This document shows, piece by piece, positions 40,155-54,410 of a DNA stretch of 64,000 nucleotides. Origin of the DNA: Oleiagrimonas sp. Its GTDB lineage: Bacteria; Pseudomonadota; Gammaproteobacteria; Xanthomonadales; Rhodanobacteraceae. The stretch is taken from NCBI GenBank assembly GCA_035690885.1, contig DASSKC010000062.1:733-64732 (forward strand), read 5' to 3'. Every line of letters starts with the position of its first letter. The stretch's first letter is position 1. A program made the translations under genes and the position numbers. Below the pieces are notes generated by a model. The model searched no databases and was not told where the DNA came from. It saw only the letters and a list, made by a program, of their open reading frames with translations.

Positions 40155-41122
40155 GTCTCGCATCGACATGGCGCGCGTTGTCCCGTCCGCGCGTCGTACT
40201 GCCCTTGCTGCTGGCGGCGGCATTGTTCCTGGTGGCCGTGAGCCTGGGTGACCTCGGCCAGGTGGTCAGTCGCGTCAAGGTGGTACCCACCTCGACCATG
40301 CTGCTGGCGCTGGGCTGCGCGGCGGTGTATCTGCTTTTCAAGGGTTTGCAGTTGCACTTGTTGCTCAACGACCTGGACGCGCATCCGGGCTGGCGCCGCT
40401 TTGCGCTGGCGTTTGCCGTGGGCGAGCTGGCGTTGACGTTTCCACTGGGCGTGTTTGCGCAAAATTGGGTGCTGGCCGGCAAGAAGGACATGCACTTCGG
40501 CCGCAGTTCGGCGGCAACCATCGTGATGCTGTTGATGGAGGTGGTGGTCGCGTTGTTGTGGCTGGCGATCGTCGGCATTCCCGGCTGGCCACCGGTGCAA
40601 GCGACGGCGGCGGCCATTCTCGCGTTGATGGCGGTGCTGGCTTTTGCCTTGTTGCGTTACAACCTGCTTGGACGTATGGCCGACCGGATCAGTCATCGCC
40701 ACGTGCATCGGTTGTTGTCCGAGGGTGTCGGTCTGCTGGACGGCTTGAGGCGGCTGGGCAAGTGGCGCGTGTTCGGCATCAATCTGCTGATCACGCCGGT
40801 CTATCTGGCGGCGCTGACCGCGGCGTTCTGGGTCATGGGGCACGGCATGGGTCTGCCTCGACTCGGCTACGCGGAAGCGACCACGATTTATGCCTTTGCA
40901 CTGGCCTCGGTGCTGGTCAGTGGCGGTGTGTTCGGGCAAATCGGACTGGTCGAGGTCATCGGCATGAGCACGGCGCATGCCTGGGGCATGAGCTACACCG
41001 AGGGGCTGGCGTTGATGCTGGGTTTCCGTTTGGCGTGGACCGGCGCGATGTGGCTTCTGAACGGTACCGTGGTGGTGGCGTTGTGGCGTTCGGTGCGGCT
41101 CGATCCGGGGCACACCGAGTGA
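40151..41122 (+). CDS. UPF0104 / lysyl-PG-synthase-TM ('flippase-like') membrane protein, HpnL-like by context
   Basis: 323-aa polytopic protein. ATGA overlap with the upstream acyltransferase. The UPF0104 family includes the hopanoid-associated HpnL. This call rests on architecture and context. Confidence 0.6.
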   Translation: MSLASTWRALSRPRVVLPLLLAAALFLVAVSLGDLGQVVSRVKVVPTSTMLLALGCAAVYLLFKGLQLHLLLNDLDAHPGWRRFALAFAVGELALTFPLGVFAQNWVLAGKKDMHFGRSSAATIVMLLMEVVVALLWLAIVGIPGWPPVQATAAAILALMAVLAFALLRYNLLGRMADRISHRHVHRLLSEGVGLLDGLRRLGKWRVFGINLLITPVYLAALTAAFWVMGHGMGLPRLGYAEATTIYAFALASVLVSGGVFGQIGLVEVIGMSTAHAWGMSYTEGLALMLGFRLAWTGAMWLLNGTVVVALWRSVRLDPGHTE

Positions 41123-41123
41123 T

Positions 41124-42206
41124 TCAGCCCTCGATCGCGGCCATGAAACGTGTCACGGACTGATCGCAGCTCATGTGCGGCACGCCCGGGCGCGCCAGTG
41201 CGCGCGGGATGTCGGTCGACAGATTCAGGTCTTTTTGCGTGGTCGACCAGACGTGGCCTTTGTCGTGATGGAACCGGGCCAGGTATTCCTGTTCGCTTTG
41301 CCCCGGCGTGGGCACGAACAAGGCCTGCTTGCCCAGCCCGGCCAGTTCCATGAGCGTGGTGTAACCGGAGCGGGTCATGACCAATCGCGCGCGCGCCAGC
41401 ATTTCGCTTTGCGCCTGGCGATCAAGGTAGCCGTAAACGGTGGCGTTGCCGATGTGGCGGCAATCATCCGCCCGTGAGGGTTGGCCCAGCGCGACCACGA
41501 TGCGGCCTTCCAGATGGGGCAACGCCTCGAGCACTTTTTGTGCCATCAGCGTGCGTTGCGGCTCGATGCCGGAAATCGAGAAAAAACAGTCGATGTCCGG
41601 CTCGGCGCTGGTCGGCGTGATGCTCGACAACGGTCCGATGTAGGCAAGTCGGTCGTCACCCCAGTCCAGGGCAGGGTCGTGGCCAAGGTCGCCGGACAGG
41701 CCGCGGTCGGTCTCCACATCGGGAATCAGGATGCGTTTGAAGTGACGGGTCAGGTTGCGTTGGCCGAATTCGACCAGGCGCTCGAGATGGCGCGGACGAC
41801 CGGGAATGATCTGTCGCAACGAGTGCAGCATGCAGTAGCTGGGAATGTCGTGCGACCACATGCCGAAGCGGCTGTCGGACACGATGCGATCATAACGATC
41901 ACGTGCGACGAGCTTCTCGACAAACCGATGCTCCTGCTTGAAACGGGTCATCACCACCGGCGTGGCCAGGCTCATGCGCACGTAGAACATCGCCGGCCAG
42001 CGGCTGAATGGTTTGGGGATGTCGTGGAAGCTGATGAAACGGCAGCTGGTTCCGAGCTCGGCCCGCAACAGCTGCAAGCCGTTGCCCTCGGCGCTGACGA
42101 CGGTGACCTCGTCACCCGCGTCGAGCAGGGCGCGGATCAGCACCAGAGAGCGTGTCGCGTGTCCCAATCCCCAGTCGTGTACGGCAAACAGCGTGCGGCG
42201 GGACAT
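41124..42206 (-). CDS. GT-B glycosyltransferase (GT28-N / MJ1255-like, COG1819-type)
   Basis: The N-terminus FAVHDWGLGHATRSLVLIRAL is typical of the MurG/UGT-like GT-B N-domain. The C-terminal region is GYTTLMELAGLGKQALFVPTPGQSEQ. Confidence 0.75.
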   Translation of the reverse strand: MSRRTLFAVHDWGLGHATRSLVLIRALLDAGDEVTVVSAEGNGLQLLRAELGTSCRFISFHDIPKPFSRWPAMFYVRMSLATPVVMTRFKQEHRFVEKLVARDRYDRIVSDSRFGMWSHDIPSYCMLHSLRQIIPGRPRHLERLVEFGQRNLTRHFKRILIPDVETDRGLSGDLGHDPALDWGDDRLAYIGPLSSITPTSAEPDIDCFFSISGIEPQRTLMAQKVLEALPHLEGRIVVALGQPSRADDCRHIGNATVYGYLDRQAQSEMLARARLVMTRSGYTTLMELAGLGKQALFVPTPGQSEQEYLARFHHDKGHVWSTTQKDLNLSTDIPRALARPGVPHMSCDQSVTRFMAAIEG

Positions 42207-42260
42207 GCGGATTCCTTTGATTGCGGGCGGACGATGCGGCGTGATTCCGGCGACACGTGC

Positions 42261-43145
42261 TCAGTGGTTGCGCTGGACGATGTACTCGGCCATCCAGCGC
42301 AGTGGGTCGGCACTGTCTCCCAGTGGCTGCAGCGCCTGCATGGCGTCGGAGTAGGCGCTGTCCGCGCGTTGCCGCGCCGCGTCCAGGCCCAGCAGCCCCG
42401 GCCATGTCGACTTGCCGTGCGCGGCGTCGGCGCCGCCGGCCTTGCCGGTCAGGTTTTCATCGCCTTCGACGTCGAGCAGATCGTCGCGGATCTGGAAGGC
42501 CAGGCCGATGCTGTCGGCGAAATCGCCCAGCCGGCGACGCACGCCGGCATCCAGGCCGGGCAGGGCATCGCAAGCGAGCGCGACGGCGGCACGGATGAGG
42601 CAGCCGGTCTTGCGGCGATTGAGTTCTTCCAGTTCCGCCAGTTCGACATGTCGCGATTCGGCTTCCAGATCCATGGTCTGGCCGCCGGTCATGCCCAACG
42701 ACCCCGTGGCTTGCGCCAGTGTGCGGACCATGCCGATGCGACTGGCCGACGCGCTCTTGCCATCGGCCAGTACTGCGAACGCCAGCGTTTGCAGGGCGTC
42801 GCCGGCGAGAATGGCGGCTGCCGTGCCGTAGGCCTTGTGCACGGTGGGACGGCCACGCCGAAGCGCGTCGTCATCCATCGAGGGCAAGTCGTCGTGTACC
42901 AGCGAAAAACCGTGGATCATCTCGACCGCACACGCCGGATCGTCCAGCCGGTCCGGATCGATGCCGAGAACTTCGCCGGTGGCATAGCACAGCAAGGGAC
43001 GTACGCGTTTGCCACCACCGAGAATGGCGTAGCGCATGGCCTCGTGGAGCGATGACGGTGCCGTGGCGGCGGCGGGGAGACGGGCGTCCAGTGCGCGCTC
43101 GGCGCGGTCGACGTAATCGGGTACCCGGCTCTCGAAACTGGTCAT
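42261..43145 (-). CDS. ispA: (2E,6E)-farnesyl diphosphate synthase (polyprenyl synthetase)
   Basis: FARM LVHDDLPSMDDDALRRG and SARM FQIRDDLLD. I start at MTSFES (ATG 43145). Confidence 0.9.
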   Translation of the reverse strand: MTSFESRVPDYVDRAERALDARLPAAATAPSSLHEAMRYAILGGGKRVRPLLCYATGEVLGIDPDRLDDPACAVEMIHGFSLVHDDLPSMDDDALRRGRPTVHKAYGTAAAILAGDALQTLAFAVLADGKSASASRIGMVRTLAQATGSLGMTGGQTMDLEAESRHVELAELEELNRRKTGCLIRAAVALACDALPGLDAGVRRRLGDFADSIGLAFQIRDDLLDVEGDENLTGKAGGADAAHGKSTWPGLLGLDAARQRADSAYSDAMQALQPLGDSADPLRWMAEYIVQRNH

Positions 43146-43342
43146 GCTGTCCACTGGTGGCCCTTTGCAAATGGCGATGCGGGTCATGGTGCAATGCGTC
43201 GTGGCGGATGTCCACTGGCCGGCATGCGGCGTATTCATTCAGTTGGTGTCCAGCGCCTGAAGCCGTTTGCTTGGTACCGTTTTTTTGTCGCAAGCGTTAT
43301 CGTATATCAGCGATACGTCAGCACACATGAGGAGTCAGCGTC

Positions 43343-44425
43343 ATGCGCATGTCCGTTGCCCTCGCTCCTTCTGCCAAGTATCTGCATGACTATCAGGACG
43401 ATATCCTGAAGAAGGTGTCGAGGACATTTGCCCTGACCATCCCGCAACTGCCCAAGCCGTTGCGACGGGTGGTCACCAATGCCTATCTGTTGTGCCGCAT
43501 TGCCGACACCATCGAGGACGAGTCGGCATTGTCGGTCGAGCAGAAGCAGCATTTCCACGAGCTGTTTTTGAGTGTGGCCGCTGGCGATGCCGATGCGGCG
43601 GCTTTCGCCGACACGCTGACACCGCTGCTGGCCAATGACGCACTGGAGGCGGAAAAGGACCTCATTGGCCACACCGATGCGGTGGTCGCGGTCACGCGTG
43701 GTTTCAACGACAACCAGCAGGCCGCCCTCAATCGATGCCTGACCGTGATGTGCCGCGGCATGCCGCGCTACGAACGTCACGCCAGCATCGAGGGGTTGAG
43801 CAACCAGGCGTCACTGGATCGTTATTGCTACTACGTCGCCGGTGTGGTTGGCGAGACGCTCACGGCGCTGTTCTGCGATTACTCCGAGTCCATCAATCGT
43901 CACCGCGAACGCATGATGCAGCTGGGTCTTTCCTTTGGCCAGGGACTGCAGATGGTCAACATCCTCAAGGACTTCTGGGAGGACCATGGGCGTGGCGTGT
44001 GCTGGTTGCCGCAGAATCTGTTTGCGCGGATGGGCGTCAATCTCGGCCAAGTCGACCGCAACCATTACCAGCCAGGCTTCGGCGAAGCCTACGCCAACCT
44101 GATCGGCGTTGCCTACACGCACCTGCGCAACGGGTTCGAGTACACGCTGATGATTCCCGAAAAGGAATCGGGCATTCGTCGCTTCTGCCTGGTCGCATTG
44201 GCGCTGGCCGTGCAGACGCTGCAGCGCATCCATGAGAATCCGGATTTCCGTTGCGGCAGCGATGTGAAAGTATCGCATCGCGTGGTGACCAATACGCTCA
44301 TCATGACGCGTCTGTTCGCCGGCTATGATCGTGTCCTGCGACGCTGGTTCGGGCGTCTCGGTCGCGGGCTGCCAATGCAGACGCTGGTGGCTGACTGGTC
44401 GGAGAAGTTGCGCCAGATACGTTGA
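43343..44425 (+). CDS. sqs: Squalene synthase (single-enzyme SQS type; squalene/phytoene synthase family)
   Basis: SRTFALTIPQLP, Asp-rich CRIADTIEDE and NILKDFWED. The gene lies immediately upstream of shc. Confidence 0.85.
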   Translation: MRMSVALAPSAKYLHDYQDDILKKVSRTFALTIPQLPKPLRRVVTNAYLLCRIADTIEDESALSVEQKQHFHELFLSVAAGDADAAAFADTLTPLLANDALEAEKDLIGHTDAVVAVTRGFNDNQQAALNRCLTVMCRGMPRYERHASIEGLSNQASLDRYCYYVAGVVGETLTALFCDYSESINRHRERMMQLGLSFGQGLQMVNILKDFWEDHGRGVCWLPQNLFARMGVNLGQVDRNHYQPGFGEAYANLIGVAYTHLRNGFEYTLMIPEKESGIRRFCLVALALAVQTLQRIHENPDFRCGSDVKVSHRVVTNTLIMTRLFAGYDRVLRRWFGRLGRGLPMQTLVADWSEKLRQIR

Positions 44426-44483
44426 CCGGCGCGCCCGGCGATCCATTGCAACATGTTCAACATGTGTCGGAGGAGGAAGCTTG

Positions 44484-46454
44484 ATGCGTGATGTCTCCGT
44501 GGAACCGTCCATGGCCACGGGCGGCGGGGCAGGGGAAGGTCTAGTGGACCGCCATCGTCTTGATGCCGCCATCGCCGCGACCCGCAACGCATTGCTGCAA
44601 AGTCAGCACGACAATGGCCATTGGTGCCACGAGCTGGAGGCCGATTGCACCATCCCGGCTGAGTACGTGTTGATGCTGCATTATTTCGGCGAGCGCGAAC
44701 CCGAACTGGAAGCGAAGATCGGCAACTACCTGCGGGCACGCCAGGGCAAGGACCATGGCTGGCCCTTGTACGAGTCGGGCGCGATGGACGTCAGTTGCAG
44801 CGTCAAGAGTTATTATGCGCTCAAGCTGATCGGCGACGATCCGGATGCCGAGCACATGCAACGGGCGCGCCAGGCGATTCGCGCGCGTGGCGGCGCGGCT
44901 CGGGCCAACGTGTTCACGCGCATGACGCTGGCGTTGTTCGGCGAGTTGCCCTGGCGCGGCGTTCCGGTGGTGCCGGTGGAGCTGGTGTTGCTGCCGCGCT
45001 GGTTTCCCGTCCATCTGCTGAAGATTTCCTATTGGTCGCGCACCGTGGTCACGCCCCTGGCTGTTTTGTGCAGCCTCAAGCCGCGGGCGGCCAATCCACT
45101 TGGCGTCGGCATCCGTGAACTGTTCATCACGGCGCCCGAAGACGAGCGTCATTACTTCGATCCGCCGCGCACGCTGCTGGCGCGGTTGTTCCTGTGGCTG
45201 GACCGTTTTGCACACGTACTGGATGCGCATCCGCCCAAGTGGTTGCGTCGGCGCGCGGTCAAGCGTGCCATGGACTGGATGCTGCCGCGGTTGAATGGCG
45301 AGGACGGGCTCGGGGCCATTTTCCCGGCCATGGTCAATGCCTGCGAGGTGCTGGCGCTGCTGGGTTACGACCAGAACGAATCGCCCTTGCGCGAAGCGCG
45401 TCAGTCGGTGCGCAAGCTGTTGATCGAGAAGGACACCGAAGCATATTGCCAGCCCTGCGTGTCACCCGTGTGGGACACGGGTCTGGGCTGTCTGGCCATG
45501 CAGGAGGATGCGCGCTCGCATCCGCTGCCCGAGCTGCAGCAGTCCGTGACTCGGGCACTTGATTGGTTGCACGAGAAACAATTGACCGACGAGGACGGCG
45601 ACTGGACGCTGACCCATCCCCGGCTGCCCGGCGGCAGCTGGGCGTTCCAGTACAACAACGCGGCGTATCCCGATCTGGACGACACCGCGGTCATGGCCTG
45701 GACCATGCTTCGCGGAGGTGCCGACGGAGCCGACACCAGATACGCCGAGTCCATCCAGCGCGCGGCCGATTGGCTGATCGGCATGCAGTCGCGCAACGGC
45801 GGTTTTGCCGCGTTCGATTCGGACAACACGCATTACTGGCTCAACCAGATCCCCTTTGCCGATCATGGCGCACTGCTCGACCCGCCGACCAGCGATGTCA
45901 GCGCACGCGTGCTGACTTTTCTGTCTGCCCTGGCCAGACCCGGGGACAAGCGCGCCCGTACTCGGGTCCTCGCGTACTTGCGCAACAGCCAGACCGACGC
46001 GGGTTGCTGGTTCGGGCGCTGGGGTACCAACTACATCTACGGCACCTGGTCGGCTTTGATGGCGCTGGAGGCCGCTGGCGTCGATCACGGTGATGCCGCG
46101 GTGCGGCGCGGGGTGGCGTGGCTGAAGCAGTGCCAGCGTGCCGATGGCGGCTGGGGCGAGACCAACGATACCTACATGGATCCGGGCCTCGCCGGCACCG
46201 ATTCGCGCAGCAATGCCGCACAGACCGCGTGGGCGCTGCTGGGTCTGATGGCAAGCGGCGAGGGCGGCAGCGAGGCGGTCGCGCGCGGCGTACAGTGGCT
46301 CGTGCAGACGCAGGACCAAGACGGCCGCTGGCACGACAAGGGTTTCAACGCACCGGGCTTTCCGCGCGTGTTCTATCTCAAGTATCACGGTTACAGCCAT
46401 TATTTTCCGTACTGGGCGCTGGCACGTTATCGCCGGTGCACGGTCGATGGCTGA
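44484..46454 (+). CDS. shc: Squalene-hopene cyclase
   Basis: Catalytic DxDDTA (PDLDDTAV) and several QW repeats (QRADGGWGE, QSRNGGFA, QDQDGRWHD). SD 'ggaggagga' lies before ATG 44484. Confidence 0.95.
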   Translation: MRDVSVEPSMATGGGAGEGLVDRHRLDAAIAATRNALLQSQHDNGHWCHELEADCTIPAEYVLMLHYFGEREPELEAKIGNYLRARQGKDHGWPLYESGAMDVSCSVKSYYALKLIGDDPDAEHMQRARQAIRARGGAARANVFTRMTLALFGELPWRGVPVVPVELVLLPRWFPVHLLKISYWSRTVVTPLAVLCSLKPRAANPLGVGIRELFITAPEDERHYFDPPRTLLARLFLWLDRFAHVLDAHPPKWLRRRAVKRAMDWMLPRLNGEDGLGAIFPAMVNACEVLALLGYDQNESPLREARQSVRKLLIEKDTEAYCQPCVSPVWDTGLGCLAMQEDARSHPLPELQQSVTRALDWLHEKQLTDEDGDWTLTHPRLPGGSWAFQYNNAAYPDLDDTAVMAWTMLRGGADGADTRYAESIQRAADWLIGMQSRNGGFAAFDSDNTHYWLNQIPFADHGALLDPPTSDVSARVLTFLSALARPGDKRARTRVLAYLRNSQTDAGCWFGRWGTNYIYGTWSALMALEAAGVDHGDAAVRRGVAWLKQCQRADGGWGETNDTYMDPGLAGTDSRSNAAQTAWALLGLMASGEGGSEAVARGVQWLVQTQDQDGRWHDKGFNAPGFPRVFYLKYHGYSHYFPYWALARYRRCTVDG

Positions 46455-47118
46455 TATCGGCGTGGTGGCGGCCTTGCCGGCGGAAGCCGCGACATGGCCG
46501 GCGGACAGCGGATTTCAGGTCGTCGTGGCCGGTCCGGGCATGCAACGCGCCACGGCTGCCGCGCGAGGCCTGTTGGCGGCGGGAGCCACGAGGTTGATCA
46601 GCTGGGGCGTGGCCGGTGGCCTGACGGCTCGACTGCGGCCGGGTGATCTGGTGCTCGCCGATCGGGTGGCATCCGCCGACGGCGTGCAGATACCCGATCG
46701 AGACTGGTGCAGCGAGATGGTCGCGAGGCTGCAACCGCTGGAATGTCCGCTCACGGTCGGAAGCGTCTGGACGCATGCGCATGCGGTCACATCACTCGCG
46801 GAAAAACAACGGCTGGCGGCCAATGGCCATGCCATCGTCGACATGGAGGCCGCCGCCGTGGCGTCCGTGGCGCGTGCTGCCGGCGTGCCGTTCGTGGTCA
46901 TCAAGGCGGTGTGCGACCCGGCCGGTCGCGCGCTTCCGGCTTGCGCGCCACGGTTGTTGCACGCCGATGGTCGCGTGCGGGTCAGCGCCGTGGCCATGAC
47001 CCTGGCAAGTGGTCCGCGCATGTGGCGCCATCTGCGGCAAATGCACCGCGATTTCGATGCTGCTTGCGGCGGTTTGCGCAAAGCGGCCGCATGCTTGTCG
47101 GTATCATGTCCGCCATGA
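46447..47118 (+). CDS. hpnG: Hopanoid-associated phosphorylase/nucleosidase HpnG (PNP_UDP family)
   Basis: DMEAAAVA nucleosidase motif. 8-nt overlap with shc. The position between shc and hpnA is the canonical one. Confidence 0.85.
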   Translation: MADIGVVAALPAEAATWPADSGFQVVVAGPGMQRATAAARGLLAAGATRLISWGVAGGLTARLRPGDLVLADRVASADGVQIPDRDWCSEMVARLQPLECPLTVGSVWTHAHAVTSLAEKQRLAANGHAIVDMEAAAVASVARAAGVPFVVIKAVCDPAGRALPACAPRLLHADGRVRVSAVAMTLASGPRMWRHLRQMHRDFDAACGGLRKAAACLSVSCPP

Positions 47119-48116
47119 GCGACTTGGTACTGGTCACCGGCGCCAACGGTTTTGTCGGTTCGGCCGTGGTGCGCAACCTGCTTGAGGCGGGTTATCGGGT
47201 GCGTGCGCTGGTACGTGCCAGCAGCCGCATGGACAACCTTGCCGGTGTGGATGCCGAGCCGGTGATCGGCGATTTGCGTGACCCCGATTCGCTGGCCGAC
47301 GCCATGCGCGGTTGTCGGGGCGCGTTCCATGTGGCGGCCGACTATCGCCTGTGGACGCCCGATGCCGCGGCCACCGAAGCCATGTACGCCAGCAATGTCG
47401 AGGGCAGCCGCAACGTCCTGCGTGCGGCGTCGCGGGCCGGCGTCGCGCGCATCGTCTATACCAGCAGCGTGGCCACGCTGGGTCTGCATGCCGACGGGTC
47501 CCCGGCGGACGAAACCACGCCGGTCACGTTGGACGCCATGATCGGAGATTACAAGCGCTCCAAGTATCTGGCCGAACAGGCAGTCGAGGAGTTGGCCGAG
47601 TCCGAACATCTCGACGTGGTCACCGTGCATCCGGCGGCACCGGTCGGTCCGCGCGACATCAAGCCGACACCGACCGGGCGCATGGTGCTGGACGCCGCGC
47701 GCCGGCGCATGCCGGTGTACGTCGATACCGGCCTGGACATCGTGCATGTCGACGATGTGGCCGAAGGTCACCGCCTGGCATACGAGCGCGGCACCGGCGG
47801 CCGGCACTACATCCTCGGCGGCGACAATCTCAGTCTGCGCGAGATTTTGATCGAGGTGGCCGTGATCACCGGTCGGCATGCCCCCTGGATGCGCATTCCG
47901 CATGCGCTGGTACTGCCGCCGGCGCATCTCGCCGAGCTCCTGGCCCGGTTCAGCAAGCGTGAACCGGCGGTGACCGTGGCTGGCGCCCGGTTGGCCCGAA
48001 AGCACATGTATTTTTCGCATCAGCGCGCCGCATTCGAGCTCGGATATGCCCCCGGACCGGCCCGCGAGGCGCTTGCCGATGCGGTGAAATGGTATGCCGA
48101 GAACGGCCGGTTATGA
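47115..48116 (+). CDS. hpnA: Hopanoid-associated NAD-dependent sugar epimerase/dehydratase HpnA
   Basis: VLVTGANGFVGSAV Rossmann motif and YKRSK (YxxxK). ATGA overlap with hpnG. Confidence 0.85.
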   Translation: MSDLVLVTGANGFVGSAVVRNLLEAGYRVRALVRASSRMDNLAGVDAEPVIGDLRDPDSLADAMRGCRGAFHVAADYRLWTPDAAATEAMYASNVEGSRNVLRAASRAGVARIVYTSSVATLGLHADGSPADETTPVTLDAMIGDYKRSKYLAEQAVEELAESEHLDVVTVHPAAPVGPRDIKPTPTGRMVLDAARRRMPVYVDTGLDIVHVDDVAEGHRLAYERGTGGRHYILGGDNLSLREILIEVAVITGRHAPWMRIPHALVLPPAHLAELLARFSKREPAVTVAGARLARKHMYFSHQRAAFELGYAPGPAREALADAVKWYAENGRL

Positions 48117-48270
48117 GCACGTTTAGGCGTAAAAGCGTAGAATAGGGCAAGTCGGGCACTGGTTTTACACCCATCCTCCGGAGCGAGGCCACGACCACTC
48201 GGTCAAGCATGACAGGCTCTCCGGATCCGACGCCGGCGGGCCGACACCGTTTGGATGCGAAGGAGTCCAG

Positions 48271-49263
48271 ATGACAGCGATTGCGCAAGCGCAACCCAAT
48301 ATCGCGCTGGTCAAATACTGGGGCAAGCGGGATACGGCACTCAACCTGCCTGCGGCCGACTCGCTGTCCATCACCCTGGCGTCCCTGTCCACGCGGACCG
48401 AAGTCACTTTCGACCCGACGCTTGAACACGATGTGCTGCTGCTCAATGGCGCGCCCGATGCGCGGACGCTGGCGCGTGCCAGTGCGTGTCTGGACGTGCT
48501 GCGCGAGCGCGCCGGCAATCCGTGCCGTGCGCATGTGGATACGCGCAACAACTTTCCCACCGCTGCGGGACTGGCCTCATCGGCGTCGGGCTTTGCCGCG
48601 CTGGTGATGGCGGCCAACGCGGCGCTTGGCTTGCCGGAAGATCGACCATGGCTGTCCACGATCGCCCGTCAGGGATCGGGGTCGGCGGCGCGTTCGCTGT
48701 ATGGCGGCTTCGTGCACATGCATGCCGGAAGCCGCGAAGATGGTGCCGACGCGCATGCCGAGCCGTTGCTGGAAGCCGGGGCCTGGCCGCTCGAAGTCGT
48801 GGTCGCCGTGACCACGCGCAAGGCCAAGGCCGTGGGCTCCGGTGAAGGCATGGAGCGGACGCGACGTACCTCGCCGTTCTACGGCCAATGGGCCGGAACG
48901 GTCGCCGACGACATCGTGCTGGCGCGCGCGGCGGTTGCGGCACGCGACTTCGAGGCACTGGCCGCTGTCAGCGAGCACAGCTGCTTGAAAATGCATGCGT
49001 TGATGTTGTCCAGCCAGCCGCCGTTGATGTACTGGTCGCCGGCAACGCTGGCCTGCATGCAGATGGTTCGCCAATTGCGCGAGCGTGATGGTCTGGGCGT
49101 GTTTTTCACCGTCGATGCCGGTCCCCAGGTCAAGGCCGTTTGCCTGCCGGCCGATGCCGCGAAAGTCGCGGCCGCGTTGCGCGAGGTGTCCGGCGTGGAA
49201 GCGATTCTGCGCAGCGCATTGGGCAAGGGGGCGCGCAACGTTCCCATGGCCGAGGTGGCCTGA
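48271..49263 (+). CDS. mvaD: Diphosphomevalonate decarboxylase
   Basis: NIALVKYWGKRD, GLASSASGFAAL (GHMP motif), FTVDAGPQV. SD 'aaggag' lies upstream. Confidence 0.9.
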   Translation: MTAIAQAQPNIALVKYWGKRDTALNLPAADSLSITLASLSTRTEVTFDPTLEHDVLLLNGAPDARTLARASACLDVLRERAGNPCRAHVDTRNNFPTAAGLASSASGFAALVMAANAALGLPEDRPWLSTIARQGSGSAARSLYGGFVHMHAGSREDGADAHAEPLLEAGAWPLEVVVAVTTRKAKAVGSGEGMERTRRTSPFYGQWAGTVADDIVLARAAVAARDFEALAAVSEHSCLKMHALMLSSQPPLMYWSPATLACMQMVRQLRERDGLGVFFTVDAGPQVKAVCLPADAAKVAAALREVSGVEAILRSALGKGARNVPMAEVA

Positions 49264-50324
49264 TGCACGCGGTGCATGCCAGCGCCCCGGCCAAGCTGGT
49301 TGTCGCCGGCGACTACGCGGTGCTCGAAGGCGCCCCGGCAGTCGTCATCGCGCTGGATCGGCGCGCGCATGTCGAAGTCGAGTCTTTGGCGGACACGGAT
49401 GCCGCGTTCTGCATTGACGCCCCGGACCTCGACATTCGTGGTGCGCAAGGCCGGCTGGAGGGCGAGCGCATCACCTGGTCGTCCGACGCCGATCGTTTGA
49501 CGCTGGTGACCGCGGTGCTGCAATACCTGGCGCAGCACGGCGCGGCGCCGCGTTCCGCGCACGTCACGCTGGACACGCAAGCGTTCTTTGCCGGCGACGG
49601 CGCCAAGCTCGGCCTGGGTTCCAGCGCGGCCCTGACCGTCGCGTTGACGGCCGCCGTGAACACGGCCAACGATGCAGAGGCGGGCGATCTTGCGGCCATG
49701 ATCGGCATGCATCGGCGCATGCAGGGCGGTCGTGGCAGTGGCCTGGATATTGCCGCCGCCTTGATGGGGGGCACGTTGATTTACCGCTTGAGCGATGGAC
49801 AAGCGCAAACCGAGCGTGCCCGCTGGCCGCACGAGCTGGGCCTGTGCTGCGTCTGGTCCGGACGCTCGGCTTCGACGGGCTCGGCATTGGCGCAACTGGC
49901 CGATTGGCGGTCGCGGCATACGGCTGCTTACGCCACCCACATGCAGGCCTTGTCGGATGCTGCCGCCGAGGTGGCTGTGGCCCTGCGTGCAGGCAGCGGC
50001 GCCGACATGGCCACGGGCATGTCCGAGTATGCCGATATGCTGGCGCGCTTCGGCGAAACCGTCGGCATCGACATCGTGTCGGCTGAACACCGCGCACTGG
50101 CCGCCATGGCCAATGACTGCGGCGTGGTGTACAAAAGTTGCGGTGCCGGCGGTGGCGACGTCGGCATGGCCGTGGCCGTGGATGATGATCGACTTTCCCA
50201 TTTCGCACGGCAGGCTGCGAGCGCCGGTTTCCGCATCGTGGAAACCGGTATCGACGAGCGCGGCCTGTCGGTGCAAACAGCAAACACGAGTCACAGGAGA
50301 CAACCATGGACAACGTACGCGTGA
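49263..50324 (+). CDS. mvaK2: Phosphomevalonate kinase (GHMP kinase)
   Basis: APAKLVVAGDYAVLEG, GLGSSAALTVAL, KSCGAGGGD. TGATG overlap with mvaD. Confidence 0.8.
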   Translation: MHAVHASAPAKLVVAGDYAVLEGAPAVVIALDRRAHVEVESLADTDAAFCIDAPDLDIRGAQGRLEGERITWSSDADRLTLVTAVLQYLAQHGAAPRSAHVTLDTQAFFAGDGAKLGLGSSAALTVALTAAVNTANDAEAGDLAAMIGMHRRMQGGRGSGLDIAAALMGGTLIYRLSDGQAQTERARWPHELGLCCVWSGRSASTGSALAQLADWRSRHTAAYATHMQALSDAAAEVAVALRAGSGADMATGMSEYADMLARFGETVGIDIVSAEHRALAAMANDCGVVYKSCGAGGGDVGMAVAVDDDRLSHFARQAASAGFRIVETGIDERGLSVQTANTSHRRQPWTTYA

Positions 50325-52615
50325 ATGATGGCGAACGCGATCCCGGAGCCAGGACATCGACATCGCGCTCGGCACGCTTTCCGGGCTTCTACAAGCTGTC
50401 GGTTGCCGAGCGGGTCAGGCTGCTGAGCGGGCGCGGACTGCTGTGCCGCGACGATTTTCGTGCGCTGGCCAGTGGGCGCCACAAGCTGACGGTGGACAAG
50501 GCCGACAAGATGATCGAGAACGTCATCGGCGTACTCGGCATGCCGGTCGGACTGGGCCTGAACTTCCTCATCAACGACAAGGACTACGTGATACCGCTCG
50601 CCGTCGAGGAGCCCTCCATCGTTGCGGCCCTCAGTTCGGCGGCCAAGCTGGCGCGCAAGGGTGGCGGGTTTCGCACCCGCAGCACCAAGCCGATCCTGAT
50701 CGGGCAGGTGCAGGTGGTGGACGTGGCGCACGCGAGCAAGGCGCAGGCCGCGCTGCTGCGGCGCAAGGACGAGCTCATCAACCTCGCCAACAGCCTGCAT
50801 CCGAACATGGTCGCACGTGGCGGCGGCGTCGAGGACGTCGAGGTCATGGTCCATTCCGCGCCCGACGGCAAGCGTGACATGGTCGTCGTGCATCTGCTGG
50901 TCAACACCTGTGACGCCATGGGCGCCAACCTGGTCAATACCATGTGCGAGGGCGTGGCGCCGCTGGTGGAAACCATTACCGGCGGCAAGGTGTTCCTGCG
51001 CATCCTGTCCAATCTGACCGACCGTGCGCTGGTGTGGGCCGAGGCCGTGATTCCGGTCGAGGCGCTGGCCGGCAAGGGCCGCGACGGTGCCGAAGTGCGC
51101 GACGGCATCATCCTGGCCAACGACCTGGCCATCGTCGATCCGTACCGTGCGGCAACCCACAACAAAGGCGTGATGAATGGCGTCGATGCCGTGGCCTTGG
51201 CCACCGGCAACGATTGGCGCGCGCTGGAAGCGGCCGCGCATGCGTATGCCGCGCGCGGCAAGAGCTACACGTCGCTGACGCGCTGGTACAAGAACGACAA
51301 CGGCGATCTGGTCGGCAGCATCGAAATGCCGATGAAGGTCGGTACCGTGGGCGGCAACCTGCAGTCCAACCCGACTGTCGGCATCAACCACCGCCTGCTC
51401 GGCATCGACAGCGGCCGCGAGTTGGCCGAGGTGATGGGCGCCGTGGGTCTGGCGCAGAATTTCTCGGCCCTGCGTGCGCTGGTCACCGACGGCATCCAGC
51501 AGGGCCACATGACCTTGCACGCGCGCAGCGTGGCAATGGCGGCCGAGGCGACACCGGAGATGTTCGATACCGTGGTCGAGCGGCTGCTCGAAGACGGTGA
51601 GATCAAGATCTGGAAGGCGCGCGAAATCATCGCCGAACTGGGTGGCAAGGCGCGTCCGCGCCTGGTCGCCGGCAAGGACAAGCGCGAGGACGAGGCGTCC
51701 TGGTCGGCCGGTCACGGCAAGATCATCCTGCTTGGCGAACATGCCGTGGTACATGGCCGCCATGCCATCGCCGCGCCGGTGCCGCTGGCGATCAAGGCGC
51801 GCGTCGATGATGCGGACGAAGGCGTCACCTTGATGATCCCGCGCTGGGGCGTCGAGCAGCGCCTGCAACAGCACCTCAACCATCCGGGATCGTTCCTGCA
51901 GTCGCTGGCCATGTTGATCGACAAGCTCGAGCTGGGCGATCGGGCGATGGAAGTGCGCGTGTATCCCAATGTGCCGCGTGCCATGGGGCTGGGTGGTTCG
52001 GCGGCGTTGGCCGTGGCCGTGATCCGTGCGCTGAACCGGCATTTCAGTCTGTCGTTGAGCGAGGCGGATATTTGCCAGCTGGCTTTCGAGTGCGAAAAGA
52101 TCGCGCATGGCACGCCATCGGGTATCGACAACACCGTCGCCACGTACGGCAAGCCGTTGCTGTACCGCAGTGGCAATCCGGCGGAAGTGGAAACCCTGCA
52201 TCTGACCGAGTCGTTGCCACTGGTCATCGGCCTGTCCGGTACCGAAAGCCTGACCGCCAAGATGGTGGCGCGCGTTCGCCGCGCGTGGGAAAACAACAAG
52301 CCGCTTTACGAGCGCATCTTCGACGAAATCGACACTTTGACCATGCATGCGCTGGATGCGCTCAAGGCACACGATCTGGCCCAACTGGGCGAGTTGATGA
52401 ATGTCTGCCAGGGCCAGCTCAATGCGCTGCAAGTGTCCAGCTGGGAGCTTGAGGAATTGATGCAGATTGCACGCGACAACGGCGCCACCGGCGCCAAGCT
52501 GACCGGTGGCGGCGGTGGCGGTTCGATGATCGCGCTGTGCCCCGATGGCACGCAACAAGTAGTGCAGGCGATGCACAACGCGGGCTACCAGGCGATGGAG
52601 GTGCGCTTTGGCTGA
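50306..52615 (+). CDS. Apparent bifunctional class II HMG-CoA reductase (about aa 1-445) fused to mevalonate kinase (about aa 468-769)
   Basis: The HMGR part has EEPSIVAA, DAMGANLVNTMCE, THNKGVMNG, GTVGG, QQGHMTLHAR. A charged linker GGKARPRLVAGKDKREDEASWSA follows. The MK part has GHGKIILLGEHAVVHG, PRAMGLGGSAALAVAV, KLTGGGGGGSMIAL. It is a single uninterrupted 769-aa ORF. Confidence 0.85.
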   Translation: MDNVRVNDGERDPGARTSTSRSARFPGFYKLSVAERVRLLSGRGLLCRDDFRALASGRHKLTVDKADKMIENVIGVLGMPVGLGLNFLINDKDYVIPLAVEEPSIVAALSSAAKLARKGGGFRTRSTKPILIGQVQVVDVAHASKAQAALLRRKDELINLANSLHPNMVARGGGVEDVEVMVHSAPDGKRDMVVVHLLVNTCDAMGANLVNTMCEGVAPLVETITGGKVFLRILSNLTDRALVWAEAVIPVEALAGKGRDGAEVRDGIILANDLAIVDPYRAATHNKGVMNGVDAVALATGNDWRALEAAAHAYAARGKSYTSLTRWYKNDNGDLVGSIEMPMKVGTVGGNLQSNPTVGINHRLLGIDSGRELAEVMGAVGLAQNFSALRALVTDGIQQGHMTLHARSVAMAAEATPEMFDTVVERLLEDGEIKIWKAREIIAELGGKARPRLVAGKDKREDEASWSAGHGKIILLGEHAVVHGRHAIAAPVPLAIKARVDDADEGVTLMIPRWGVEQRLQQHLNHPGSFLQSLAMLIDKLELGDRAMEVRVYPNVPRAMGLGGSAALAVAVIRALNRHFSLSLSEADICQLAFECEKIAHGTPSGIDNTVATYGKPLLYRSGNPAEVETLHLTESLPLVIGLSGTESLTAKMVARVRRAWENNKPLYERIFDEIDTLTMHALDALKAHDLAQLGELMNVCQGQLNALQVSSWELEELMQIARDNGATGAKLTGGGGGGSMIALCPDGTQQVVQAMHNAGYQAMEVRFG

Positions 52616-53189
52616 GGCATTGACGCAAACCGATCCGGTGGTCTCGTTTGATTCGGAACAATTGATCCTGGTCAATTCGGACGACCACGAAATAGGGTAC
52701 AAGGACAAAGGTGCCTGTCATGACGGTCACGGCATCCTGCATCGCGCCTTTTCGTTGTTCGTGTTCAATCGAAACGGCGAGTTGCTGTTGCAGCAGCGCG
52801 CGAAGGACAAGCGCCTGTGGCCCGGTTACTGGGCCAATACGTGCTGCAGCCACCCGCGCCGCGGCGAAAGCATGGACGATGCCACGGCCAGGCGTCTGGC
52901 CGAGGAAATGGGCATGCGCTGCGACCTGCGCTACCTGTACAAGTTCGAATACCAGGCCGATTATGGTGATCTGGGTGCCGAACACGAGTTGTGCCGGGTT
53001 TACGTGGGCCAGTCCGACAGCCCCGTATCGGTCAACGTCAACGAGGTCGAAGCCTGGCGCTTCGTCTCGGCGGCAGAGCTGGACGAGGAAATCGAGGCCC
53101 ATCCGGAGCGTTTCACGCCATGGCTGAAAATGGAATGGCAACGATTGCGCAATGAGTTCAATGCAGTTTTGCCACTGAGTAGTGGCTGA
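52608..53189 (+). CDS. idi: Isopentenyl-diphosphate delta-isomerase, type 1 (Nudix)
   Basis: HRAFSLFVFN..GELLLQQRA..K..WPGYWANTCCSHP..GE. TTG start with 'ggag' 7 nt upstream. 8-nt overlap with the fusion ORF. Confidence 0.85.
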   Translation: MAEALTQTDPVVSFDSEQLILVNSDDHEIGYKDKGACHDGHGILHRAFSLFVFNRNGELLLQQRAKDKRLWPGYWANTCCSHPRRGESMDDATARRLAEEMGMRCDLRYLYKFEYQADYGDLGAEHELCRVYVGQSDSPVSVNVNEVEAWRFVSAAELDEEIEAHPERFTPWLKMEWQRLRNEFNAVLPLSSG

Positions 53190-53291
53190 ACCCGTTGATA
53201 CGGTTGTTTTGACTACACCCTGGTATGCGCCTAGGCTGAAAACCGGACGAGAGAAAAAACATTTTCGAATATCGCATTGAAGGAGGTCATC

Positions 53292-54410
53292 ATGAGCATA
53301 CCCCTCGTGCAAAAGTACCGCGTGGCTCGCTACGTGGTCGGCAAGAAACTCGCGGGTGTCAAACGATACCCGCTGACGTTGATGCTGGAACCGCTGTTCC
53401 AATGCAACCTGGCCTGTCCCGGTTGCGGCAAGATCGACTACGAAGATGACATCCTGCGCCGACGCATGAGCGTCGAGGATGCCTTGCATGCGGTCGATGA
53501 ATGCGGTGCGCCCATGGTGTCGCTGCCCGGTGGCGAGCCCTTGATCCACAAGGAAATCGACCAGATCGTCGAGGGCATCATCGCGCGCAAGAAGTTCGTC
53601 TATCTTTGCACCAATGCGATTCTGCTGAAGAAAAAACTCGACCTGTTCAAGCCGTCACCGTATCTCACGTTTTCCGTGCATCTGGACGGCCTGCGTGAGG
53701 AGCACGACAAGTCGGTCGATCGCGAAGGTGTTTTCGACACGGTCGTGGAGGCAATTTCCGAAGCGTTGAAACGCGGCTTTCGTGTCACCGTCAATTGCAC
53801 GCTGTTCACGGGCGAAGATCCGGCCCGGGTGGCGCAGTTCTTCGATTACGTGACCGAGCTGGGCGTGGAGGGCATCACCGTCTCGCCGGGCTACAGCTAC
53901 CAGCACGCCGCGCGTCAGGATGTGTTCCTGCCACGCAATGCCAGCAAGGATCTGTTCCGCGACATCTTCCGCCATGGCAAGCAGCGCAAGGACAAATGGC
54001 GCTTCAACCAGTCCGGCCTGTTCCTGGACTTTCTCGCCGGCAACCAGACCTACCAGTGCACGCCGTGGTCAATGCCTTGCTACAACATGTTCGGCTGGCA
54101 AAAGCCGTGCTATCTGCTGGTGGACGAGGGCTACGTGCCCACCTTTGATCAATTGATCAACGACACCGACTGGGATCATTACGGCTTCGGCCACAATCCC
54201 AAGTGCGACAACTGCATGGCCCATTGCGGCTACGAAGGCACGGCCGTCGACGACACCTTCAATCATCCGTTGAAGGCCTTGTTCGAGTCCATGCGCGGAC
54301 CGCGCACCGAAGGCCCGATGGCGCCGGAGCTGCCGGTTCTGTACAGCACTCGTGAGAGTGACCCGGCCGACATGCGGGTGGCGGTCACCGGTCCCGAAGA
54401 CCACCACTGA
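53292..54410 (+). CDS. hpnH: Adenosyl-hopene transferase HpnH (radical SAM)
   Basis: CNLACPGC is a CX3CX2C cluster. The C-terminal Cys-rich region (CTPW...CYLL...KCDNCMAHCGYE) is conserved in HpnH. SD 'aggagg' lies 5 nt before ATG 53292. Confidence 0.9.
   Translation: MSIPLVQKYRVARYVVGKKLAGVKRYPLTLMLEPLFQCNLACPGCGKIDYEDDILRRRMSVEDALHAVDECGAPMVSLPGGEPLIHKEIDQIVEGIIARKKFVYLCTNAILLKKKLDLFKPSPYLTFSVHLDGLREEHDKSVDREGVFDTVVEAISEALKRGFRVTVNCTLFTGEDPARVAQFFDYVTELGVEGITVSPGYSYQHAARQDVFLPRNASKDLFRDIFRHGKQRKDKWRFNQSGLFLDFLAGNQTYQCTPWSMPCYNMFGWQKPCYLLVDEGYVPTFDQLINDTDWDHYGFGHNPKCDNCMAHCGYEGTAVDDTFNHPLKALFESMRGPRTEGPMAPELPVLYSTRESDPADMRVAVTGPEDHH

Follow-up and report, generated by a model that had tools for sequence, protein, structure and literature searches.

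Clusters of hopanoid biosynthesis (hpn) genes have been described from Zymomonas, Rhodopseudomonas, Burkholderia and Acidobacteria (PMC5462960), with the acidobacterial 'cluster B' consisting of ispA-shc-hpnH and 'cluster C' of hpnA-hpnG, and the hopanoid producers surveyed in the papers on these canonical clusters all carry MEP genes. The Acidobacterium SD22 MAG 'Mor1' is reported to combine shc, hpnH and a squalene-synthase-like gene with the mevalonate pathway and to lack MEP genes (PMC5462960), and Wenzhouxiangella genomes are reported to encode a squalene synthase together with the mevalonate pathway (PMC7691419). The locus studied here lies in a 64,000-nucleotide stretch of DNA (the window) from an Oleiagrimonas-like MAG (its HMGR::MK protein is 100% identical to one from an 'Oleiagrimonas sp.' MAG) and shares shc, hpnG, hpnH and hpnA with the canonical clusters, with ispA nearby as in those clusters. 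We propose that positions 38871-54410 form a supercluster of isoprenoid-lipid genes on the chromosome of an uncultured soil bacterium of the Rhodanobacteraceae; to this reading, taken jointly with the pathway, the history and the role as main IPP source set out below, we assign a probability of about 0.7. The features of the locus are as follows.

38871..40154, + strand, acyltransferase-like 427-aa protein
40043..41122, + strand, LPG_synthase_TM membrane protein
41124-42206, - strand, GT-B glycosyltransferase, divergent from sqs
42261-43238, - strand, ispA, divergent from sqs
43343-44425, + strand, sqs
44484-46454, + strand, shc
46447-47118, + strand, hpnG
47115-48116, + strand, hpnA
48117..48270, no strand, hpnA-mvaD spacer (154 bp)
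48271-49263, + strand, mvaD
49263-50324, + strand, mvaK2 (probable)
50306-52615, + strand, HMGR::MK fusion
52608-53189, + strand, idi
53208..53238, + strand, promoter-like element before hpnH (TTGACT-N17-TAGGCT)
53292-54410, + strand, hpnH

All nine + strand genes from sqs to hpnH are present at the coordinates listed earlier by the first-pass annotation, with the same overlaps and gaps: the junctions are +58 (sqs/shc), -8 (shc/hpnG), -4 (hpnG/hpnA), +154 (hpnA/mvaD), -1 (mvaD/mvaK2), -19 (mvaK2/HMGR::MK), -8 (HMGR::MK/idi) and +102 nt (idi/hpnH). Every gene and junction behind its description of a tightly packed sqs-shc-hpnG-hpnA group, an overlapping mevalonate group and a divergent ispA and glycosyltransferase was thus reproduced; its gene calls are correct, as is the nested position of the mevalonate genes, with hpnA on one side and hpnH on the other. 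The adjacency of these genes is not due to chance, since the gene order repeats in about 25 independent genomes or contigs.

Families were assigned by Pfam and NCBIfam profiles and judged against the curated NCBIfam cut-offs. The product of sqs matches Pfam SQS_PSY (E 4.5e-52) and has TIGR01559 as its top NCBIfam match (114 bits, under the cut-off of 287); it carries two Asp-rich motifs, and among PDB sequences eukaryotic squalene synthases rank first, before CrtM and phytoene synthase. By these matches, it is a squalene synthase of the eukaryote type, in which one enzyme does the work of HpnCDE. Shc (TIGR01507, 780 bits vs a cut-off of 431; DLDDTA at residue 397; QW repeats intact) is, by profile and motifs, a squalene-hopene cyclase. 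HpnH (TIGR03470, 537 bits vs 225; CxxxCxxC at residue 38) is predicted to be the radical-SAM adenosylhopane synthase, and HpnA (TIGR03466, 464 bits vs 368) a hopanoid-associated SDR 'sugar epimerase'. HpnG has TIGR03468 (HpnG) as its top NCBIfam match (E 4.6e-44; 150 bits, under the cut-off of 187) and is a putative hpnG-like nucleosidase/phosphorylase, which would convert adenosylhopane into ribosylhopane. IspA, with DDxxD motifs (FARM and SARM) at residues 116 and 252, is by homology a farnesyl diphosphate synthase; its match to NCBIfam NF045485 (332 bits vs 275) starts at residue 44, and the true start may lie about 35-40 codons into the ORF.

Among the mevalonate genes, mvaD (TIGR01240, 283 bits vs 171) and idi (NF002995, 171 bits vs 127) are, as judged by their profiles, genes for diphosphomevalonate decarboxylase and type-1 IPP isomerase. 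With 29-59% identity to relatives, mvaK2 is less conserved than any other gene in the block; it encodes a GHMP kinase, probably a phosphomevalonate kinase: its top NCBIfam match is TIGR01220 (108 bits, under the cut-off of 166), and its closest PDB entries are Listeria Lin0012 and the S. pneumoniae PMK. The HMGR::MK fusion combines a class II HMG-CoA reductase (residues ~23-448; TIGR00532, 410 bits) with a mevalonate kinase (residues ~466-762; TIGR00549, 250 bits), and both scores exceed the curated cut-offs. Both halves align over their full length to known structures (1QAX/6DIO and mevalonate kinases, respectively), the motifs holding E83, K267, D283 and H381 (Pseudomonas mevalonii numbering) are conserved, and the same three Pfam domains are found in all of the 120 best matches listed out of 8000 scored. 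The title of the best HMGR model, TIGR00532 ('HMG-CoA reductase, degradative'), and the score of 392 bits against the catabolic enzyme of P. mevalonii (vs 404 bits for the best PDB match) would suit a block that breaks down mevalonate instead of making IPP. We give this catabolic reading almost no weight: the fused mevalonate kinase, the phosphomevalonate-kinase-like gene, the decarboxylase and idi point in the biosynthetic direction, no HMG-CoA lyase gene (mvaB) is adjacent, and Gram-positive biosynthetic class II enzymes also match TIGR00532 (e.g. the Enterococcus 'degradative' enzyme encoded beside HMG-CoA synthase).

With the block read as biosynthetic, homology suggests that HMGR::MK would convert HMG-CoA into mevalonate and then mevalonate-5-phosphate, that the MvaK2-like kinase would yield mevalonate diphosphate, and that MvaD would give IPP, which the type-1 IDI would convert into DMAPP. 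IspA would then make FPP, the one-enzyme Sqs squalene and Shc hopene, and HpnH and HpnG would lead through adenosylhopane and ribosylhopane onward to bacteriohopanepolyols. The cassette had been described as self-contained from HMG-CoA to functionalised hopanoid; the start at HMG-CoA holds, and no HMG-CoA synthase or thiolase gene was found within the 64 kb window. HMG-CoA would be supplied by genes elsewhere (HMG-CoA synthase or leucine catabolism).

HpnA, the GT-B glycosyltransferase and the two membrane/acyltransferase-like proteins are putative accessory members. The glycosyltransferase matches PF04101 (Glyco_tran_28_C / MurG-like; E 2.5e-9) and has no PDB relative by sequence; its gene is kept beside ispA in 7 Rhodanobacteraceae loci (L001-L004, L010, L015, L016), and the Wenzhouxiangellaceae versions of the cluster lack it. 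The 38871..40154 protein has only a sub-threshold Pfam Acyltransferase match (a weak PlsC-type signal) and no NCBIfam match; its gene is also kept next to the cluster in L003, and a full-length homologue (41% identity, E 1e-90) lies directly 3' of hpnH in L093. There, it is followed by a homologue (44% identity) of the 40043..41122 protein, which matches LPG_synthase_TM (PF03706, E 1.5e-15) and no NCBIfam model at E up to 1, which probably starts at a site downstream of 40043, and whose gene is kept as a neighbour of the glycosyltransferase gene in L001-L003 and L015. From these neighbourhoods, we propose the acyltransferase-like and LPG_synthase_TM genes as extra cluster members.

The order sqs-shc-hpnG-hpnA / mvaD-mvaK2-HMGR::MK-idi / hpnH was found in 13 further genomes or contigs (Rhodanobacteraceae, gammaproteobacterial or 'Casimicrobiaceae'-labelled), with the full order seen in Rhodanobacteraceae MAGs (L001-L004, L007, L010-L012, L015, L016, L081/L082, L095), in the gammaproteobacterial L096 and in L093. 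Ten Wenzhouxiangellaceae-type MAGs carry a version without hpnA (sqs-shc-hpnG-mvaD-mvaK2-HMGR::MK-idi, then hpnH; hpnG-mvaD gaps of 7-54 nt). Rhodanobacter, Wenzhouxiangella, Marinobacter, Woeseiaceae and some Actinobacteria also have the mvaD-mvaK2-HMGR::MK-idi operon, but with no hpn gene less than 8-10 kb away. In MVA-type loci, ispA adjoins mevalonate or sqs genes, never dxs.

These distributions bear on the role of the block. Most or all of the cell's IPP probably comes from it (the least certain part of our scheme), so that quinones and undecaprenol would be fed too. The first-pass annotation had seen a dedicated precursor supply, an idea under which the MEP pathway serves housekeeping and the nested block only raises hopanoid IPP flux. 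In about 25 genomes hopanoid genes enclose the mevalonate genes, which fits this idea, as does the precedent of Streptomyces, where mevalonate clusters adjoin those for terpenoids (PMC5509993). A 2026 survey lists both pathways for its sole Rhodanobacter species and MEP alone for other Rhodanobacteraceae (PMC13001223 Table S1), which makes MEP plausible in the family; the host may carry the MEP pathway beyond the window, and if so the block could be auxiliary. However, the identical operon stands hpn-free in the many relatives named above, which points to a hopanoid-independent role, and the same survey assigns only the mevalonate pathway to Wenzhouxiangella, Woeseia and Dyella caseinilytica (PMC13001223 Table S1; see also PMC7691419); because of these two observations, the block more likely supplies IPP generally than for hopanoids alone. 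The cluster also includes ispA, usually a single housekeeping gene, and unlike the self-sufficient Streptomyces cassettes the block lacks an HMG-CoA synthase gene. We therefore regard dedicated supply as doubtful, and prefer the block as main IPP source.

Two sister clusters show the same scaffold with a different precursor module. L097 has the order dxs / sqs-shc-hpnG-hpnA-idi-hpnH-ispA, with dxs beside sqs, and L094 (bacterium BMS3Bbin12) has ispG ... GT2-hpnH-ispH / dxs-sqs-shc-hpnG. Like the window, both have a Sqs-type scaffold, the same gene order and embedded precursor-pathway genes (identity to the window: Sqs 52% in L094, Shc 59-62%, HpnH about 69%), and L097 retains the idi-hpnH adjacency, but their module is MEP (dxs, ispH, ispG) whereas that of the window is mevalonate. 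At the site where the window holds mvaD-mvaK2-HMGR::MK, L097 has an 18-nt hpnA-idi gap; since the sister cluster is closed there, the mevalonate genes sit exactly at the hpnA/idi junction. Set against L097, in which hpnA runs straight into idi-hpnH and dxs is beside sqs, the mevalonate block reads as an insert; as to direction, the MVA genes may have been inserted, or deleted from MEP-type clusters, and the trees (NJ, midpoint-rooted) fit both.

Sqs, Shc, MvaD, the fusion and Idi have correlated pairwise distances (r = 0.86-0.97), and hpnH has a discordant history partly separate from the rest of the cluster. In the fusion tree, hpn-flanked loci are interspersed with loci that lack such flanks, which points to repeated loss. 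The layout would be old, inherited and repeatedly lost rather than newly acquired. For the window genome, the proposal that the block was acquired as a unit is not supported. A recent transfer of the whole block as an island might draw on its variable flanks around a constant internal order (RND efflux genes in the window, tig-clpP-clpX-lon in L081 and L095) and on two further occurrences: MAGs of Actinobacteria, Myxococcales and Thermoanaerobaculia have the fusion, and a 'Casimicrobiaceae'-labelled contig has the full cluster; these indicate transfers at some time. A recent transfer is nevertheless very unlikely: cluster GC (0.59-0.68) and GC3 (0.73-0.83) agree with values elsewhere in the window, the cluster showed neither a tRNA nor an integrase, transposase or flanking repeat, no plasmid copy of the fusion was found, and the nearest relatives are all of the same family with graded identity.

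Co-localisation of the genes probably supports co-ordinated expression from about three predicted promoters: one in the divergent ispA/sqs region, one in the spacer between hpnA and mvaD, and one at the element before hpnH. Scans of the cluster gave neither a terminator nor an Rfam match. The hpnA-mvaD spacer, which showed no terminator and no strong sigma-70 match when scanned, is 92-673 nt long in all Rhodanobacteraceae loci and shares with relatives only a TAGAAT-like box after the hpnA stop and its last ~25 nt; it is a possible internal promoter. TTGACT-N17-TAGGCT is invariant with fixed spacing in 8 genomes (the spacer sequence varies), has a single occurrence in the window, against 0.02 expected by chance, and one in each of L001-L004, L006, L016 and L068; every copy lies in the idi-hpnH gap, with no further occurrence in the 97 loci, a pattern consistent with a promoter-like site for hpnH. 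Because of the Rhodanobacteraceae spacer and this element, hpn and mevalonate expression may be uncoupled. In L093, hpnA and mvaD overlap and idi and hpnH are 4 nt apart, and therefore form one compact operon; hpnH and idi overlap by 4 nt in L007, L011 and L015.

Compared with the canonical hpn clusters, the window has a single eukaryote-type Sqs for squalene in place of HpnC/D/E, holds a four-gene lower mevalonate operon inside the cluster, and lacks hpnI/J/K/O/N/P/R. The nested operon is described in neither PMC5462960 nor PMC7691419, and nor are the HMGR::MK fusion and its distribution; PMC7691419 takes the Wenzhouxiangella genes to serve squalene production, with no mention of hopanoids. 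The first-pass annotation knew of no described hpn cluster with this organisation, and we likewise found no published account of one in the literature searched; the possibility it raised, that the layout is already common and described, holds for the first half (about 25 genomes or contigs) and apparently not for the second. The Streptomyces naphterpin, terpentecin, furaquinocin and napyradiomycin clusters resemble the window in that a mevalonate operon adjoins the genes for a terpenoid end product (PMC5509993). Those cassettes carry HMG-CoA synthase, NphT7, a type-2 IDI and separate HMGR and MK, and serve secondary metabolites in MEP-bearing hosts (PMC5509993), whereas the window has no synthase, a type 1 IDI, fused HMGR and MK, and a predicted membrane-lipid product. 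Hopanoid clusters with embedded precursor genes are known, and the mevalonate-nested layout is a conserved and apparently undescribed form of them; by comparison, the window cluster is the mevalonate version within a family of Sqs-type hopanoid operons that carry idi-hpnH and embedded precursor genes.

The genes named by the first-pass annotation were recovered with all starts, stops and junctions exactly reproduced (ORF list and codon-level check). The features of the cluster and its surroundings, in window coordinates, are:

38871-40154, gene of an acyltransferase-like 427-aa protein, upstream of the glycosyltransferase gene; proposed extra cluster member
40043-41122, gene of an LPG_synthase_TM membrane protein, upstream of the glycosyltransferase gene; proposed extra cluster member
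41124-42206, minus strand, GT-B glycosyltransferase gene, divergent from sqs
42261-43238, minus strand, ispA, divergent from sqs
43343-44425, plus strand, sqs, 58-nt gap before shc
44484-46454, plus strand, shc, 8-nt overlap with hpnG
46447-47118, plus strand, hpnG, 4-nt overlap with hpnA
47115-48116, plus strand, hpnA, 154-nt gap before mvaD
48271-49263, plus strand, mvaD, 1-nt overlap with mvaK2
49263-50324, plus strand, mvaK2, 19-nt overlap with HMGR::MK
50306-52615, plus strand, HMGR::MK (class II HMG-CoA reductase fused to mevalonate kinase), 8-nt overlap with idi
52608-53189, plus strand, idi, 102-nt gap before hpnH
53208-53238, bipartite element TTGACT-N17-TAGGCT in the idi-hpnH gap
53292-54410, plus strand, hpnH, last gene of the cluster

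Gene names were checked against Pfam and NCBIfam, which concur for every gene. Shc, HpnA, HpnH, MvaD, class II HMGR, MK, type-1 IDI and FPP synthase score above their curated NCBIfam cut-offs; for HpnG, Sqs and the MvaK2-like kinase the named family is the best NCBIfam match, yet under the cut-off. The remainder of the window holds ordinary chromosomal genes. A 1289-aa ORF (59936-63805, minus strand) was rejected as a gene: it has no Pfam match and is an antisense shadow of the true gene at 59879-64000, a plus-strand ORF opening at 59879, at least 1374 codons long and cut off by the end of the window.

The hopanoid genes include what defines an hpn cluster, i.e., shc with its motifs, an adjoining squalene-forming enzyme, and the side-chain genes hpnH and hpnG. 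Shc scores 780 bits with TIGR01507 (cut-off 431) and has the DLDDTA motif at residue 397 and three full QW motifs. HpnH (TIGR03470, 537 bits, cut-off 225; CxxxCxxC motif present) lies above its cut-off and HpnG (best match TIGR03468, 150 bits, cut-off 187) below, so the HpnH assignment is firm and that of HpnG probable. The squalene-forming step beside shc is a single Sqs type, not HpnCDE. Sqs matches Pfam SQS_PSY (E 4.5e-52) and has two Asp-rich motifs, and among solved structures (PDB) eukaryotic squalene synthases match it best, better than CrtM and phytoene synthase; because it scores 114 bits with TIGR01559, under the cut-off of 287, we only infer its product specificity. Both DDxxD motifs are present in IspA. 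Lipid data for Oleiagrimonas or Rhodanobacteraceae were not found in the open-access literature. As a side observation, the best match of the window Shc in the protein collection is 85% identical and none is identical, and HMGR::MK of the same contig has an identical entry; since the shc ORF is intact in the window, the source annotation may have missed shc or flagged it as a pseudogene.

Among the mevalonate genes, HMGR is of class II (TIGR00532, 410 bits), and alignment to the Pseudomonas mevalonii enzyme (1QAX) shows conservation of the motifs holding E83, K267, D283 and H381. A catabolic HMGR was considered and rejected. MK scores 250 bits (cut-off 163) and MDD 283 bits (cut-off 171). The third kinase (MvaK2-like) reaches 108 bits with TIGR01220 (cut-off 166) and is PMK-like only; its PDB matches are Lin0012 and the S. 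pneumoniae PMK. The window IDI is type 1 (NUDIX). The HMGR::MK protein is 100% identical to one of an uncultured 'Oleiagrimonas sp.' MAG, by which the window belongs to Rhodanobacteraceae.

The first-pass annotation had the cluster start at HMG-CoA, which agrees with our searches: neither thiolase nor HMG-CoA synthase (queries: Enterococcus gallinarum mvaS, then the L065 protein; L001-L097 denote the homologous loci or contigs from other genomes compared with the window) was found in the 64-kb window or in 80 of the loci, and the Legionella and Listeria plasmid matches had no HMG-CoA synthase. HMG-CoA must be supplied by genes elsewhere or possibly, as a speculation, by leucine catabolism. Only two loci among all have an HMG-CoA synthase adjoining idi, where a 494-aa HMG-CoA-synthase-like gene is convergent to idi (L065:13688-15169, a Woeseiaceae MAG, and L066:12681-14159, an unclassified gammaproteobacterial MAG); in the other loci no linkage of the upper mevalonate pathway to the operon was seen. 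Two variants of the fusion were also observed. One relative, protein P0076, found on a 220-kb contig, has 1131 aa (versus about 760) with 69% identity and may carry a third fused domain. In a Burkholderiaceae MAG (L075:7902-11754) the order is mvaD-mvaK2-MK-idi; where the fusion would be expected, no HMGR domain was detected, and the reductase may be unfused or relocated.

To see how widely the layout occurs, the fusion protein was searched in one genome per GTDB species, which gave 80 loci, and the window proteins were then mapped onto these loci. The full layout (divergent ispA, then sqs-shc-hpnG-hpnA, mvaD-mvaK2-HMGR::MK-idi and hpnH) is found in Rhodanobacteraceae MAGs (L001-L004, L010, L015 and L016), and L007, L011 and L012 show the same layout within the limits of their contigs; two contig fragments (L006 and L068) show the mevalonate genes, idi and hpnH. 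Relatives of Shc revealed further carriers of the full order, namely the Rhodanobacteraceae locus L095, the gammaproteobacterial locus L096, and L093. The last is a contig from a JGI metagenome, and its Shc cluster bears the label Casimicrobiaceae; with an hpnA-mvaD overlap and 4 nt separating idi from hpnH, its nine genes make up one compact operon. A version without hpnA (divergent ispA, then sqs-shc-X-mvaD-mvaK2-HMGR::MK-idi followed by hpnH) is found in ten Wenzhouxiangellaceae-type MAGs (L025, L028-L031, L033, L035, L037, L059 and L063; the L033 contig stops before hpnH), in which X is an HpnG-like ORF of 220-250 aa lying 7-54 nt upstream of mvaD. In Nevskiaceae MAGs and a group of unclassified proteobacterial MAGs the mevalonate operon is accompanied by hpnH and no other hpn gene (L027, L051, L040, L041, L045 and L049), and it stands alone or beside ispA in Rhodanobacter species, cultured Wenzhouxiangella, Marinobacter, Woeseiaceae and two actinobacterial MAGs. 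Very probably, at least 20 of the best 120 Shc matches lie on the same contigs as the listed fusion matches.

This synteny comparison shows the gene order recurring across Rhodanobacteraceae and other lineages. Chance adjacency is rejected by this recurrence, the layout is not peculiar to the window, and the cluster is real, conserved and widespread among uncultured lineages. In one Rhodanobacteraceae MAG (L005:5609-16341) a divergent ispA is followed by sqs-mvaD-mvaK2-HMGR::MK-idi and then the gene of the RND pump; this locus has lost shc, hpnG, hpnA and hpnH and is a derived, squalene-only form of the cluster.

Among 16 complete clusters, the pairwise distances correlate with r = 0.86-0.97 between Sqs, Shc, MvaD, the fusion and Idi, as fits a block that is inherited together. 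In the tree of the fusion, loci with and without hpn flanks are intermingled in Rhodanobacteraceae as well as in Wenzhouxiangellaceae; because the gene order is identical wherever hpn genes are present, their repeated loss or separation is more parsimonious than repeated assembly. The 3' gene was apparently replaced at least once, as hpnH is discordant in L001 (12973-14088) and L004 (12990-14108): these two loci are the closest relatives of the window for the other genes, yet their hpnH shares just 67-71% identity with the window hpnH and groups with Nevskiaceae hpnH, whereas hpnH of more distant relatives is about 90% identical. The downstream flank consists of RND efflux genes in the window and L016, and of tig-clpP-clpX-lon in L081 and L095.

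The first-pass annotation also suggested that the cluster may have been acquired as a unit, and here the region carries no island mark. GC is 0.59-0.68 across the cluster versus 0.58-0.67 elsewhere in the window, and GC3 of the genes is ordinary. No tRNA gene, meaningful flanking repeat, Rfam element, integrase, transposase or deviant composition was found in the window, and the fusion was not found on plasmids in PLSDB. On these results a mobile genomic island was rejected.

The mevalonate block was initially read as a dedicated precursor supply for hopanoids. We doubt this part: the same mvaD-mvaK2-HMGR::MK-idi operon also occurs apart from hopanoid genes, including in relatives, and an isoprenoid-pathway survey of 2026 (PMC13001223 Table S1) lists Wenzhouxiangella, Woeseia and Dyella caseinilytica as mevalonate only, one Rhodanobacter species with both pathways, and Frateuria and two other Dyella species with MEP. 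Squalene synthase, together with the mevalonate pathway, is listed as genus-specific in the Wenzhouxiangella genome paper (PMC7691419). In mevalonate-type loci, ispA is always beside mevalonate or sqs genes. In many Gammaproteobacteria, ispA is in an operon with dxs. Because the operon occurs apart from hopanoid genes, some relatives are listed as mevalonate-only and ispA lies with mevalonate or sqs genes, we think that the block more likely serves as the main IPP route of the cell than as a hopanoid-only booster. A tblastn search for MEP genes (E. coli Dxr, IspH, IspG and Dxs) gave no match in the window and about 1.5 Mb of loci, in which only about 1-2 matches would be expected were MEP in every genome.

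Two relatives of the window Shc (59-62% identical) sit in the same scaffold with MEP genes instead:

L097:6850-16333 (2.0-Mb contig), dxs divergent from sqs-shc-hpnG-hpnA-idi-hpnH-ispA
L094:1-12776 (bacterium BMS3Bbin12), ispG ... GT2-hpnH-ispH divergent from dxs-sqs-shc-hpnG

L097 has 18 nt between hpnA and idi, and 4 nt between idi and hpnH. Compared with L097, the window has mvaD-mvaK2-HMGR::MK exactly at the hpnA/idi junction, and the divergent position is taken by ispA in the window and by dxs in L097. What stays constant in this family of clusters is the idi-hpnH junction. Embedded precursor-pathway genes are a general theme of Sqs-type hopanoid operons, of which the window is the mevalonate version. 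In neighbor-joining trees of Shc and Sqs (midpoint rooting), the MEP-type clusters fall between the Rhodanobacteraceae and Wenzhouxiangellaceae groups; unrooted, this is a trifurcation of three groups, and the trees therefore do not distinguish whether the mevalonate genes were inserted or deleted.

A further-reaching reading, to which we give a probability of about 0.45, i.e., slightly less than an even chance, is that a gammaproteobacterial clade (soil Rhodanobacteraceae, saline Wenzhouxiangellaceae and allies) lacking or bypassing MEP would build bacteriohopanepolyols from mevalonate-derived IPP, and that the precursor module in the conserved scaffold sqs-shc-hpnG-(hpnA)-[precursor module]-idi-hpnH would have been swapped in evolution, with MEP genes (dxs, ispH, ispG) as one form and the lower mevalonate pathway as the other.

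As for expression, neither internal gap contains an intrinsic-terminator-like hairpin (terminator scan) or a passing site in a consensus sigma-70 scan. The element TTGACT-N17-TAGGCT occurs once in the window (0.02 expected by chance) and once each in L001-L004, L006, L016 and L068, always at the idi-hpnH junction and nowhere else in the 97 loci. It is invariant in these eight genomes of the sub-clade of the window while the spacer sequence varies, and we regard it as a putative hpnH promoter. In the other sub-clade (L007, L011 and L015) hpnH and idi overlap by 4 nt, and hpnH is therefore translationally coupled to the mevalonate operon. The hpnA-mvaD spacer (92-673 nt) is always present in Rhodanobacteraceae, with little conservation; L093 lacks it, and the corresponding gap is very short in Wenzhouxiangellaceae. 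Of the window spacer, relatives share just two parts, a TAGAAT-like box following the stop of hpnA and the final ~25 nt. A stretch containing GTATGCTGG upstream of mvaD is common to L001, L003, L004, L010 and L012 and missing from the 154-bp spacer of the window. Judging from sequence, the cluster would most likely be expressed as three co-oriented units with read-through (sqs-hpnA, mvaD-idi and hpnH).

Two further genes are proposed members of the cluster. In L093 (17798-19854), homologues of the acyltransferase-like and LPG_synthase_TM genes (41% and 44% identity) are the next genes after hpnH within its operon, and in L001-L003 and L015 both genes are beside the glycosyltransferase gene as in the window. 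No NCBIfam model matched either protein, so neither is recognised as HpnL, and no close characterised relative of the GT-B glycosyltransferase was found. All three are candidates for hopanoid or membrane-lipid tailoring; the glycosyltransferase and the two uncharacterised genes (membrane or acyltransferase-like) may provide new functions associated with hopanoids.

Labelling work on bacterial hopanoids led to the discovery of the MEP pathway. Certain environmental sources of hopanoids probably rely on mevalonate, which bears on the isotope reading of hopane biomarkers; if the further-reaching reading is true, the carbon and hydrogen isotope signatures of these hopanoids would differ from the MEP-based ones assumed for such biomarkers, and the module swap would be a natural pathway-replacement experiment. 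The paired mevalonate-type and MEP-type versions of one operon can be used to study replacement of a central precursor pathway. The cluster is also a compact natural design of 11-13 genes (including the HMGR::MK fusion) leading from HMG-CoA to a functionalised triterpenoid, which could serve pathway engineering.

The first-pass annotation knew of no described hpn cluster with this organisation, and we likewise found no description of a window-type operon in the open-access literature on hopanoids, mevalonate, the HMGR/MK fusion, Rhodanobacteraceae or Wenzhouxiangella. Canonical hpn clusters have HpnCDE and MEP hosts, and the surveyed hopanoid producers all carry MEP genes (PMC5462960, PMC12583986); the window, in contrast, would carry out the squalene step with a single Sqs. 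An acidobacterial MAG of SD22 is reported to have shc, hpnH, a squalene-synthase-like gene and mevalonate genes, without MEP genes (PMC5462960). In Streptomyces, mevalonate cassettes attached to terpenoid clusters contain HMGS, HMGR, MK, PMK, MDD, type-2 IDI and NphT7, in MEP hosts (PMC5509993). The window does not have this composition: it is without HMGS or NphT7, its IDI is of type 1 (NUDIX) and its HMGR is fused to MK. The cluster implies no new biochemistry and fits best among hopanoid clusters that carry a precursor module within them.
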